From contig OZ250150.1 of assembly GCA_965237675.1 (NCBI GenBank), forward strand, positions 512,001-576,000: DNA of 64,000 nt, given 5' to 3'. This document shows positions 7,169-10,917 of this stretch, piece by piece. A model generated the notes under the pieces. That model saw nothing but the letters and a program-made list of their open reading frames with translations, did no database searches and was not told the DNA's origin. Every line of letters begins with the position of its first letter. Within the stretch, counting starts at the first letter, position 1. This DNA comes from Candidatus Latescibacterota bacterium (lineage in GTDB: Bacteria; Latescibacterota; UBA2968; GCA-2709665). The position numbers were made by a program, and so were the translations under genes.

Positions 7169-7269
7169 CCTGAATAATTCACAAAAAACGTAGTTTTCTT
7201 ACCCAAGTCATTGTATTATATTATGGTTAGACGAATAACCTTAACACAATAAACCGGGAGGAAACTACC

Positions 7270-8643
7270 GTGGAGATTCAAGATAAACATCACAGGGTGT
7301 CTTTCGCAAGTCTTTCCGGCAAACAGGTAGAAGCCGCCTTCGATGGGGGCGTCCTGACCAGCCTGCCTGTGCATTGCACGCAGACAGGCGACAGCGGGGT
7401 AATGCTGTTGCGGGAGGTGGAGTACAAAATCGGCATTTTGGCTCGGATCGTTGAGGCGTTAGCCGACCCTCGGCATCCCAGTTATGTGGATCACTCATTG
7501 ACGGTGGACCTGCTCAAACAACGGGTCTTTCAGATGGCCTGTGGGTATGAGGATGCGAACGATTGCAATGCGTTACGCAAGGACCCCGGCTTCAAGGCGG
7601 CCTGTGATCGGTTGCCGCTGACCGGTGCGGCGCTGGCCAGTCAACCCACGATGAGTCGGTTCGAGAACCGGATCACCAGAGGTGACTTATATCGGATCGC
7701 GAAGGCCTTTGCCGATGGGTTTATCGCCTCGTATAAGAAACCGCCCAAAGCCATCCTGCTGGATATCGATGACACGGAAGATAAGGTGTATGGGTCTGGG
7801 CAGTTGTCGTTATTCAATGCGTATTTCAACGGCTATTGCTACCAACCGTTGCATATCTATGAAGGACAAACCGGCAAGTTGATCACGACGATTTTGCGTC
7901 CTGGCGTGCGGCCTTCGGGCAAAGAGATCGTTTCGATTCTCAAACGGGTGATCGCCTACCTGCGTCGAGCCTGGCCCCATGTGGCGATCCTGTTGCGTGG
8001 CGATTCTCATTTTTCGTGTCCGGAAGTTCACGCGTTGTGTGACACACAGAATGTGTATTTTGCCCTTGGACAAAGCGGCAATGCCAAGTTGCTGCCCAGG
8101 GCACAGCCCTTGATGGACCAGGCCAAAGCGCTGTATGCCGCTTCCGGCAAAACCGTGCGCCTTTTTTCCTCGTGGGACGATCAGGCCAGCACCTGGGCTT
8201 CGCCACGCCGCATCATCTGTAAGGCGGAAGTGACACCGCAAGGACACAATATCCGTTTCGTGGCCACCAACCTGAAACGCGCCAACCCATCATTCATCTA
8301 CAAAACCGTCTATTGTGGACGCGGCAGGATGGAAGGCTTCATCAAGAATCACAAGACCTTTCACCATTCTGATCGCACCTCTTGTCACACATTCGAGGCC
8401 AATCACTTCCGGCTCTTTCTCCACAGCGCCGCCTATGTCCTGTTGCAGACCTTGGCTGAAATGGGATTGCGCGGCACAACGTGGACGAACGCACAGGTTA
8501 ATACGCTGCAAAATCGCATCTTGAAGGTCGCCGGACGCGTTTGTGAGATGAAAACCAAAATCACGTTCCATCTGCCAACGGCGTTTCCACTCAAACACCT
8601 CTATGGCAAGATCCTCTACAATCTGGCATCGTCCGTTCCATAA
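7270..8643 (+). CDS. IS1380-family DDE transposase with a 9-aa in-frame insertion; possibly degenerate
   Basis: FDGG.LTS..DSG, GYEDANDC..LR.DP, LASQPTMSRFEN, LDIDDT, LRGDSHF, Y.GRG.MEGFIK. Confidence 0.9.
   Translation: MEIQDKHHRVSFASLSGKQVEAAFDGGVLTSLPVHCTQTGDSGVMLLREVEYKIGILARIVEALADPRHPSYVDHSLTVDLLKQRVFQMACGYEDANDCNALRKDPGFKAACDRLPLTGAALASQPTMSRFENRITRGDLYRIAKAFADGFIASYKKPPKAILLDIDDTEDKVYGSGQLSLFNAYFNGYCYQPLHIYEGQTGKLITTILRPGVRPSGKEIVSILKRVIAYLRRAWPHVAILLRGDSHFSCPEVHALCDTQNVYFALGQSGNAKLLPRAQPLMDQAKALYAASGKTVRLFSSWDDQASTWASPRRIICKAEVTPQGHNIRFVATNLKRANPSFIYKTVYCGRGRMEGFIKNHKTFHHSDRTSCHTFEANHFRLFLHSAAYVLLQTLAEMGLRGTTWTNAQVNTLQNRILKVAGRVCEMKTKITFHLPTAFPLKHLYGKILYNLASSVP
7362..7388. repeat. 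27-bp imperfect palindrome inserted in frame in the transposase
   Basis: cctgcctgtgcattgcacgcagacagg; removing it restores the motif LTSDSG. Confidence 0.75.
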
Positions 8644-8886
8644 CGCATCGTCCGGTTGAATCCGCCTTCACGTCTTGATCGACACCACCAAAGCCCAGGC
8701 AGACGTCTGTGCTCTTGATCGGGGCATAAAGGCCAACCTGTGACGCCCCGGCCCTACCGTGTTGCCAGCACGTGCCACTGAAACGGCTTGGACACTCCAA
8801 ATCCGTCACAGCCAGGGCTTCCTTCCGTTTCACGATTCACTCGGAACCTGTTCCTGCTTCCCGAAACTGCAATCCGTGACAATTCA

Positions 8887-10853
8887 GTAGAGTCGAGATG
8901 TGGCGCGGTGGTTTAGGAACGGCCTATCTGTTTCCGCCCTTTCGTCTGGCGGTGCCTCAATAGCCGCTCCGTGCTCCGTTTCCACATCCCGCTCATCGAA
9001 CCGGACGTGCGGATTTCCCGCATCCGGCTCTCGGACAAGGATTCATGCGTTCGCCCACGGAAGGTTGCGCGTCTGCACCTCCAGCCGGGTCAGGCCCAAC
9101 GTGTTGTAGAGGACCTCATCAGGGAAGCGTGCCGTTCCCATTCCCGGGATCTTGTGCTTGTTGCACAACCACCAGCGGAGCCGATGCCGGGTGTGGCTGT
9201 CCACACTCCGGTAGGCTTTACTGACCGGTCCAAGACAGAAGTAGTTGCCCCAGCCTACCAGCTTTCGGTTCAGGTGGGTAATCCGTTCTTGAAGGTCTTT
9301 CAGCAACCACCGTCGCGCTGTGGCCTCGCTGATGGCCTGGCAAATGTGCCGGATGGCCTTCTTTGACGGGCGCGTGCCGATGTAGGCCCTACCCGTCTTC
9401 GGCGAGTAACAGCGTTCGATGGTGTAGCCCAGAAAGTCAAATCGTCCTTCTAAAAGCGTGCATATGCCCGTCTTCGTCTCATTGACCGTCAACTTAAGCG
9501 CTTTCATGATGGATCGCATCGCTCGCATCGCTTCGGGCGCACTGCCGCGGCAGCAGATCACATAATCGTCCGCGTCGTTGACAATATGAGCGTTCAGGCG
9601 CTGCTGATGTCCCAGAAGCTGCCACCCCAGAATGAACCGGCGCATATACAGGTTCGCCAGCAACGGGGAGACGGGGGCGCCTTGCGGGATCCCCCTTCCC
9701 TGATCCTTGTTCGGCGTCGTTCGACGTTTCCGTCCCCGCGCGTCGGTCTCTTCAACCGGGGCGGTCAGCCACATCTTGATCAGACTCAGCATCTTCCCGT
9801 CTGAGATGCGACGCGCCACCGATTTCATCAACTCGGCGTGCGGGATCGTGTCAAAGTAGCCGCTCAAGTCAGCGTCGATGACCTGCGTATGGCCACGGTT
9901 CACCAGAGTGTGGACCGCCCTGATGGCGTCGTGCGCACTCCGATTCGGGCGGTAGGCATACTGCTGTGCTGGCAGGTCCGCTTCAAAGATTGGCTCCAAT
10001 ACCAACATCGCTGCCCTTTGCACCACCCGGTCCTTCACCGTCGGGATCCCCAGCGGTCTTTGCTTGCCGTCACCCTTGGGGATGTAGACCCGACGAATCG
10101 GATCCGCTCGATACGATTTGCTCCTCACGGCTTCCACCAGTTACTGGTCCCGTCCGTATGACTCGATATCCTCAAAGGTCTGTCCGTCCACGCCCGCCGC
10201 ACCGCCGTTGGCCTTGCAGCTGCGGTAGGCATAGTGCAGGATGTCCTCGCGATACACCTTGTCATACAGCGCATAGAATCGGTAATCGGGCGATTCCTTC
10301 GCTTTGGCATGCAACGTCCTCTGCAGCTTCCGAACCTTTTCCGGAGGTCTCAGGCCCATGCCACTCTCCCGGCTCTCGCTCCTTTGACGTTGGCCTTGAA
10401 CCGAGGCCCCTTCCCTCCACCGGCATTACCCGGCTTCACCGGTACTACGGGCCTCTCCGCCACCCCATCCGGCCCGGCCTGGCCCTCGCGGGCTGCCGGT
10501 TGGTGACCATCCACCACCGCTGGGGCTTCCCGTGTTGCGTCGGATCTCCTTGTATACATGCCGTCGCCACTACCCCGGCGGGACCGTTGGGTGCGCGTGT
10601 TGCTCCCTTCCCCAACGACGGCGGCCTTCCCCGAAATTCAGGCGGGTCGGCTCCCGCATTGCCTTTTTCGAGGCCTGCTCAGCGTTCATTCACGTTACGG
10701 CCTGCATACTCGCCGAGTCGCCTTGCGACCCTCTACACCGGAGGCTTCGGAGATGTCGTTGCCTTCCTCCCCGCTCCGATTGCTACCGACTGGAGCAACA
10801 TTTGTCGGGTGGGACTCTCACCCACTGGAGTTCCGCGCCTTTTCACGGCGCAC
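8887..10853 (-). mobile_element. Group II intron (IIB-like, RT/maturase without endonuclease domain)
   Basis: 5' end GTGCG at 10853; domain V gagccggatgcgggaaatccgcacgtccggttc (8998-9030); domain VI ends ...ctcgactctAC at 8887. Removing it rejoins aattca|tgaattattcagg. Confidence 0.92.
9043..10359 (-). pseudogene. ltrA: Intron-encoded reverse transcriptase/maturase, inactivated
   Basis: [40 protein letters not shown]. In-frame TAA at 10141-10143, and catalytic YADD reads DADD. Confidence 0.85.
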
Positions 10854-10917
10854 TGAATTATTCAGGCTGATATTGTTCAAGTCCGGCGGACCCAATTGCA
10901 ACGGCTGGCCGAATTTA

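Follow-up and report, generated by a model that had tools for sequence, protein, structure and literature searches.

RmInt2, a group II intron of class D, lies in the inverted repeats (IRs) of the insertion sequence (IS) ISRm17 and retrohomes there, each strand offering one of its two sites (Martinez-Rodriguez et al. 2014, PMC4615759); ISRm17 belongs to the ISNCY family, ISDol1 group (PMC10194956). The canonical target of RmInt1 is the IS ISRm2011-2, and the intron is thought to curb the spread of that IS (PMC5894124, PMC4615759). The present text concerns an intron in an IS1380-family IS of Candidatus Latescibacterota bacterium, located in a stretch of 64,000 nt (contig OZ250150.1; G000:C1:512001-576000, where G000 is this genome), which as a whole is called the window. 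Very probably, the feature is a decaying, IIB-like, endonuclease-free group II intron of a lineage that retrohomes into the ends of IS1380-family elements and of miniature inverted-repeat transposable elements (MITEs) via three exon-binding sites (EBS1, EBS2 and EBS3).

RmInt2 resembles the introns described here in several respects: it is an endonuclease-free IIB intron, all its copies occupy the left or the right IR of a single IS, its target is read by EBS1, EBS2 and EBS3, a linker separates the intron-binding sites IBS1 and IBS2, it is relaxed in its specificity, and it also forms head-to-tail copies, as seen here at L088 and L136 (PMC4615759). It differs in its open reading frame (ORF), which is of class D with a motif that is absent here, in its host ISRm17, which is not an IS1380 element, and in its mobility, which was shown by experiment and is predicted from sequence here (PMC4615759, PMC10194956). 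Further differences from RmInt2 are the many EBS1 variants, the MITEs and the several phyla found here, and an IBS2 that extends one base into the flanking duplication. Since the class D C-terminal motif LX3AX3PXLF[V/A]HW is absent from the intron protein, whose C-terminus ends (R/H)NLPWANA, and since the target ends are those of the IS1380 family, the present intron is regarded as another lineage with the strategy of RmInt2.

The site of RmInt1 lies within the transposase gene of ISRm2011-2. Introns of class C (IIC) use a stem-loop and a short IBS1, without EBS2; the present introns, in contrast, have an EBS2, and their target is linear and 14 nt long. Found behind terminators and attC sites, IIC introns are like the present ones in being bacterial and in being aimed at a repeated structural DNA motif, not at a gene (PMC7923331). 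RmInt1 was the comparison drawn in the preliminary description of the window; it is sound in that both are endonuclease-free IIB introns specialised on an IS (PMC5894124, PMC4615759), although the ORF of RmInt1 is of class D, and the closer precedent, RmInt2 in ISRm17, had been overlooked. IStrons (group I intron fused to an IS; PMC4227781) also combine an intron and a DNA transposon in one element; they are, however, true chimeras moved by the IS machinery, whereas here the intron moves alone into the IS.

No report of IS1380 ends or MITEs as group II intron targets and no paper describing clade-wide homing to transposon ends was found, subscription journals and the group II intron database being outside the search. 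Homing into IRs is already known (RmInt2/ISRm17); the breadth across this clade may be new.

The host insertion sequence and the intron

Host element: The transposase of the window IS scored 352.4 bits against the IS1380 family model NF033539 (cut-off 180) and 476 bits against PF13701 (profile positions 3-432 of 435). The IS has a length of 1731 bp, made up of window positions 7169-8886 and 10854-10866; its ends were defined from 20 other full-length copies in the genome. In these sister copies the left end is CCTGAATAATTCA followed by CAAAAAAGG and the right end is ...GACGATTCA followed by TGAATTAATCGGG; the two ends are alike over the outer 13 bp only, which form the IR, and a 4-bp YTAR duplication is the same on both sides in 16 of the 20. 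The 13-mer CCTGAATAATTCA is followed by CAAAAA in 18 other copies in the genome. The short IR and short target-site duplication typical of IS1380 are therefore present in the sister copies; the window copy has no duplication (TTAG on the left, 7165-7168; CTGA on the right, 10867-10870). Fourteen sister copies are indistinguishable in their alignment statistics and in the sequences of their ends (82.4% identical to the window copy), and no intron was found in these 14 identical, recently amplified copies.

Intron: The boundaries GTGCG (10853) and CTAC (8887), read on the minus strand, conform to the consensus 5' GUGYG / 3' AY. With ...CAGCCTGAATAATTCA as the end of the 5' exon and TGAATTGTCACGG as the start of the 3' exon, the intron is placed 13 nt inside the right end of the IS, at the midpoint of aattca/tgaatt, exactly as had been described on first inspection. 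The left IR closes with the same hexamer (AATTCA) as the 5' exon, and the outer 13 bp of the right end are intact; both statements of the preliminary description were reproduced. These outer 13 bp equal the left repeat exactly. The EBS3-IBS3 pairing sits apart from EBS1, and the layout is that of IIB introns. A delta-delta' pairing was considered and rejected: EBS1 is preceded on its 5' side by C, which does not match the U at +1.

Intron-encoded protein: The reverse-transcriptase/maturase gene is in domain IV and is interrupted by an in-frame TAA (10141-10143). The 9-nt deletion at this position was defined relative to sister intron copies; contigs of two RNA-library runs carry the nine missing bases, in a copy diverged by ~5%. 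An intact sister copy, c3, gave 349.6 bits with TIGR04416 (cut-off 300). The reverse-transcriptase gene of the window intron is dead.

Right junction: The left flank of the window IS runs on into another gene in 13 relatives; this ancestral right neighbour (the G012 copy as a 1.4-kb query) had no match in this genome. Together with the absent duplication, the missing neighbour indicates that a deletion or rearrangement touched the right side of the window IS. Both facts would also suit a junction recombinant, formed when intron or IS copies recombined, whose outer 13-mer and right flank derive from a different site that also bore an intron, and so would the outer 13-mer itself, which is of the left-repeat type and unlike the right repeats of the closest sister copies. 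Such an origin is nevertheless quite unlikely: in another species (G012, locus L039) the same outer 13-mer stands on the same IS lineage, and public sequencing runs, consulted throughout as contigs, point weakly in the same direction. One contig of run X3 (longest contig 128 kb; library type not on record) joins 8886 to 10854, skipping exactly 1967 nt, with a shorter side of 23 nt; this joint is a weak hint at an intron-free form, maybe from a related strain or IS copy. Another X3 contig, of equal depth, shows a gap of 1 nt within the unique part on the right (position 10885), which weakly suggests that the IS end and the right flank are neighbours even without the intron.

Pairing of the intron with transposon ends

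EBS1: The hairpin at plus 10630-10646, proposed as EBS1 with its IBS1 partner in the preliminary description, was recovered in the consensus fold of 15 related introns as a 4-bp stem and a 9-nt loop in a long arm of domain I, and loop/exon covariation agreed with the assignment. Its sequence cccg-cctgaattt-cggg is the reverse complement of plus 10630-10646, and the partner of exon position -1 is the third loop base. Pairings in the window copy: EBS1, 6 bp; EBS2, 4 bp; EBS3, G-U. A total of 71 intron 5' junctions was examined (6 from this genome, 65 from relatives); a readable loop was present in 48, corresponding to 36 unique loop/exon combinations. At least 5 contiguous pairs from -1 were formed in 25 of the 36 cognate combinations vs 68 of 1086 non-cognate ones. 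The loop changes with the 5' exon, and at least seven loop types exist across the genus: CCUGAAUUU with exon ..AATTCA; GCUUGCGAA with ..TTCGCAA (7 bp in 6 of 7 copies); UCUGACGAU with ..TTCGTCA; CCUUUCGAA with ..TTCGAAA; CCCAUGGAU with ..ATCCATG (7 bp in 13 of 14 copies); AUUAUCAGC with ..TTGATA (3 of 3; the c3 exon ...CCGTTGATA gives 7 pairs); and, in a nested 859-nt intron, ACAACCGGA after exon ...GTCCGGTT (CCGGTT). Of these types, other than those of c3 and the nested intron, five occur in relatives of the genus, each cognate with its own 5' exon.

EBS2: The AGGC of EBS2 (context CGAAAA-AGGC-AA) pairs with exon positions -14 to -11, so that at IS ends IBS2 comprises the first three repeat bases and the last base of the flanking duplication. 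Covariation: AGGY with RCCU (IS-type ends); CUGC with GCAG (c3); GUGU with ACAC (G060 and G050 loci, a neighbouring family); GUGCG with CGCAC (nested intron, displaced by two bases). Stem I was tried as EBS2 and rejected, as in the consensus fold the variable intron nucleotides ~20-30 have their partner at the 3' end of domain I.

EBS3: Pairing with the first base of the 3' exon (+1) was found in 41 of 42 copies (A-U 28, G-C 4, G-U 3, U-A 3, C-G 3); the sole exception is c2. With G at EBS3, either end is acceptable, the left one having C at +1 and the right one U.

According to the mechanism proposed, the intron RNA would read its target by EBS1 (9-nt loop) at -1 to -6/-7, by EBS2 at -11 to -14 (the first three IR bases and the last YTAR base) and by EBS3 at +1. 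The three pairings span the whole 13-bp IR, and the intron would therefore land just behind it; as the left IR, the right repeat and the inner 13-mer of the right end all fit, each IS would offer as many as three sites, distributed over the two strands. The window copy presumably inserted into the right end, downstream of the transposase gene and in antisense to it, leaving that gene whole; a later 9-nt deletion would then have cost it its own protein. Retrohoming would be primed at replication forks, by analogy with other endonuclease-free introns. The ability to splice and any effect on IS transposition are presumptive.

Group II introns of bacteria are often found in mobile DNA (PMC5894124), and AATTCA is a common hexamer (2660 occurrences in the genome, both strands), so an intron might come to lie in an IS by chance or because the place is harmless, with no specificity for IS ends. 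This is extremely improbable here; it is contradicted by the loop/exon covariation, by recurrent insertion 13 nt from the tip across distinct families of IS and MITE, the loop matching the end each time, and by the YTAR offset, which is fixed in distant relatives (see below). The anatomy, the pairings and their covariation, the recurrence at IS and MITE ends and the independent insertions are matters of observation, on which homing to transposon ends is the preferred reading.

The EBS1 variants, each matched to a different transposon end and with EBS2 and EBS3 readable too, constitute a natural series of retargeted introns; such a series could help to derive the rules by which an intron class other than RmInt1 and Ll.LtrB selects its targets.

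Copies in this genome

The EBS1 UGAAUU is present or implied in four copies (the window copy, c2, c4 and c7), and each of them sits at an IS-type end, none at an unrelated aattca site; the claim that the intron lineage targets IS ends, made from the window copy only, is upheld by these copies and by the covariation. Copy c2 is inserted in a related IS, 13 nt in from the left tip, at CCCGGATTATTCA/CAAAAAGAGG (the slash marks the insertion point), and an IS1380-type transposase starts 95 nt downstream; hence both IS ends are used, the right one by the window copy and the left one by c2, as had been anticipated from the shared hexamer. Copy c4 occupies the opposite strand of a right-end palindrome like that of the window copy, a homologue of the inner 13-mer ccgtgacaattca serving as its 5' exon. 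Copy c7 is a 104-nt 5' fragment after TTAA-TCTGGATAATTCA. The intron-free IS copies that had been called for exist: ~56 IS or MITE ends of this type in the genome are free of an intron (24 left-type, 32 right-type).

All UGAAUU-EBS1 copies are defective: the window copy has its stop codon, c2 a broken frame and a mini-intron in domain V, c4 an IS copy and a mini-intron, and c7 is a stump. A long open frame was found only in c3, whose target is different.

Twintron: The mini-intron is an ORF-less group II intron of 859 nt (GTGTG...CCTAC, RF02003 match) within the 3' strand of domain V of c2 and c4; positions G000:C1:2686134-2686992 (+) and 3957081-3957939 (-); loci L001 4134-4992 and L003. The two copies are 98% identical, and their own EBS1 and EBS2 match the domain V sequence. 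Three layers of parasitism are thereby found in one genome, a mini-intron in an intron in an IS.

IS copy in c4: A full IS copy (83% to the window IS, duplication TTAG on both sides) lies inside c4 at about intron nt 1404 (G000:C1:3958408-3960090); IS and intron therefore invade each other.

Replication strand: The cumulative GC skew of G000:C1 is lopsided, with a minimum at ~0.16 Mb and a maximum at ~3.94 Mb of 5.6 Mb, from either unequal replichores or a rearranged genome. With the GC-skew origin at ~0.16 Mb and the terminus at ~3.94 Mb, the lagging-strand template holds c2, c3, c5 and c7, and the leading-strand template holds the window copy; so few copies and so lopsided a skew allow no strand bias to be read from this.

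MITE-like derivatives: Dozens of short sequences in G000:C1 resemble the IS at its start (~150 nt) and at its end (65-90 nt) and nowhere else; they are sometimes clustered (e.g., 1546000-1548300, 2312400-2312900 and 3612000-3612500).

Relatives within the genus

The first 554 nt of the intron were matched in 13 of 14 other genomes of the genus, 10 candidates being scored in each. Genome G003 contains seven ORF-less introns of 756 nt, each 13 nt inside a MITE of ~190 bp with its own flanks; the introns are 99.9-100% identical and the host MITEs 90-97%, and the 4-bp duplication is the same on both sides in five of the seven (L062 and L063 differ by one base). Genome G001 contains six introns of 1976 nt, 99.85-100% identical, with intact frames of 463 codons; their 3' exons, i.e., the hosts, are 50-67% identical (one pair, 97.5%), and four of the six introns are at IS-like ends of a MITE family. 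Near-identical introns in diverged hosts, in G003 as in G001, indicate recent separate retrohoming into old elements and not co-transposition.

The preliminary description had suggested that the intron could travel with its IS as a composite of 3.7 kb. In such a composite transposon the outer 13 bp would still serve the transposase and the pair would spread jointly. In its favour, the outer repeat is intact and exactly equals the left one, and the likeness of the two ends in the sister copies is confined to those 13 bp. Among the comparisons of copies, locus L039 of G012 is the sole hint in this direction: it lies elsewhere in its genome, yet the same IS lineage carries the intron there, at the corresponding end and likewise oriented, and the IS (87.4%) and the intron (87.9%) are similarly diverged. 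No duplication surrounds the 3.7-kb unit of the window, however, or its counterpart at L039 (TTAA vs CTAA); congruent divergence of IS and intron is not the pattern of G003 and G001, with their near-identical introns in non-identical hosts; the 14 recently amplified IS copies are intron-free; and in the X3 contig the outer 13-mer follows directly on the IS end, with no intron between them (weak, as noted above). Joint travel is accordingly judged unlikely, and entry of the intron alone into an IS already in place is retained. A question is raised by its position right behind the 13-bp repeat: the intron may silence the transposon, an effect that has been proposed for RmInt1 and RmInt2, or the transposon may stay mobile.

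CCATG-type sublineage: Introns with EBS1 CAUGGAU target ...ATCCTGTNCATCCATG, a tandem subterminal repeat ~27 nt inside the right end of the MITE family that hosts four of the G001 introns (loci L044-L052, L064, L083, L084 and L091; MITE ends in L041, L043 and L081). The left end of this MITE family is a UGAAUU-type target; some sites of the sublineage show the short motif only.

Head-to-tail introns: At L088 (G004:C52) and L136 the intron 5' end stands directly behind the 3' end of another intron.

Relatives in other phyla

The intact protein of G001 retrieved 80 loci; those with 83-100% identity are in records titled Candidatus Latescibacterota and those with 60-73% identity in records titled Acidobacteriota, Gammaproteobacteria, Gemmatimonadota, Eisenbacteria, Planctomycetota and others. 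The ends of distant introns were placed in 57 loci (L122-L178) by profile searches. Among 41 unique distant 5' exons, YTAR ended 13 nt before the splice site in 10, 12 nt in 9 and at other offsets in 2. An inverted copy of the 12/13-mer with the same 4-nt duplication was present 150-2050 nt downstream at 10 of 23 YTAR loci vs 0.25 expected from shuffled repeats. An IS1380-family IS (NF033539, 266.9 bits) was recognised at one Acidobacteriota locus, which represents its left end, and tblastn with the window transposase gave matches at 3 of the 57 distant loci.

Locus L135 (5578-8466, Acidobacteriota): The IS1380-family transposase gene behind the IR-inserted intron is cut short, and a second group II intron reverse transcriptase (TIGR04416, 341 bits) follows the shortened gene.

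A wider claim can be formulated, which has in our view an even chance of being right: an endonuclease-free intron clade of several phyla would be a dedicated hyperparasite of YTAR-preceded transposon termini, tracking the 12-13-bp IR and the YTAR junction base, switching hosts by EBS1 loop swap, giving rise to ORF-less derivatives that spread in bursts through families of MITEs by means of a protein provided in trans, and being itself parasitised by a mini-intron homing into domain V. Membership of the clade's host element in the IS1380 family was observed at only few loci. For annotation, homing to transposon ends would explain the clustering of these introns and of ORF-less forms at MITE and IS ends in uncultured lineages.

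Evidence weighing against homing to transposon ends

The following points count against the preferred reading. Pairing: only 0-3 bp were paired in 11 of the 36 unique loop/exon combinations; these include three G003 copies, L085 (C16), L086 (C61) and L056 (C24), which do not fit their own sites, the L085 loop fitting the 5' exons of L086 and L056 perfectly and the loop of the latter two fitting the L085 exon via G-U pairs. This exchange may be gene conversion between intron copies. Location: c3 and its orthologue sit between a yggS-like gene and a DivIVA gene and not at IS ends, no transposase was seen in the flanks of c5, and two of the six G001 introns (L040 and L042) look ectopic. Hosts: a transposase adjoining the target was found at few loci, and Pfam searches of 10 ORFs in distant flanks returned host genes or nothing; ordinary host genes next to most distant loci imply that the hosts there are MITEs or solo ends. 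Occupancy: only 4 of ~60 fitting ends in this genome are occupied, with none occupied in the 14 identical IS copies, a low figure which fits the dead proteins in all UGAAUU-EBS1 copies and is no proof of this cause. Scope: the genus census, being based on 10 scored candidates per genome, is incomplete, and the mobility and splicing of the lineage are predicted from nucleotide comparisons.

Coordinates and additional observations

Table 1. Features of the intron-bearing IS1380-family element in the window (window positions).
Feature	Position	Strand	Basis or remark
Left inverted repeat of the IS, CCTGAATAATTCA, next base C	7169-7181	+	vacant potential intron target
IS1380-family transposase gene, 457 aa, unbroken	7270-8643	+	NF033539, PF13701
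Inner IR-like 13-mer ccgtgacaattca of the near-palindromic right end	8874-8886	+	minus-strand 3' exon start; IBS3 is base 8886
Group II intron, 1967 nt, IIB-like, antisense to the transposase gene	8887-10853	-	boundaries and Rfam models
Domains V and VI	8887-9032	-	RF00029, 47.4 bits (cut-off 40)
Intron-encoded protein, C-terminal 364 codons (reverse transcriptase and maturase), without endonuclease domain	9043-10137	-	RVT_1, E = 4.5e-32; GIIM, E = 3.8e-15
In-frame TAA from 9-nt deletion; intron-encoded protein is a pseudogene	10141-10143	-	
N-terminal 72 codons of the broken intron-encoded protein	10144-10359	-	
EBS3, G in GGGGUA-G-UGGCG, pairing with the first 3' exon base	10570	-	
EBS1 hairpin; loop 10634-10642; EBS1 UGAAUU 10635-10640	10630-10646	-	
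EBS2 (AGGC), in the 3' part of a hairpin loop; this hairpin immediately precedes that of EBS1	10661-10664	-	
Conserved 5' part of domain I	10690-10827	-	RF02003, 109 bits (cut-off 49)
Outer 13 bp of the IS right end, final 13 nt of the 5' exon	10854-10866	-	IBS1 is 10854-10859
IBS2 (GCCU, minus strand), first three IR bases and last flanking base	10864-10867	-	

Public runs: Contigs of the two RNA-library runs cover 9008-10433 of the ~5% diverged copy, which is not proof of transcription or splicing. Many small joints inside the intron, with shorter sides of <30 nt, and the parts of the window left uncovered by the RNA runs were put down to a mix of related copies.

Split transposase genes: Two other IS1380-family transposase genes are split by insertions of ~1.4 kb (G000:C1:2687724-2689117 and 4699113-4700502); no Rfam intron match was found in the former.

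Right flank of the window element: An IS-end-like 13-mer, cctgattattctg, preceded by atag, occurs at window 10943-10959, 80 nt to the right of the IS with its intron and just upstream of an AAA_14/DUF4143 gene (10972-12180); it may be a solo end or a chance match.

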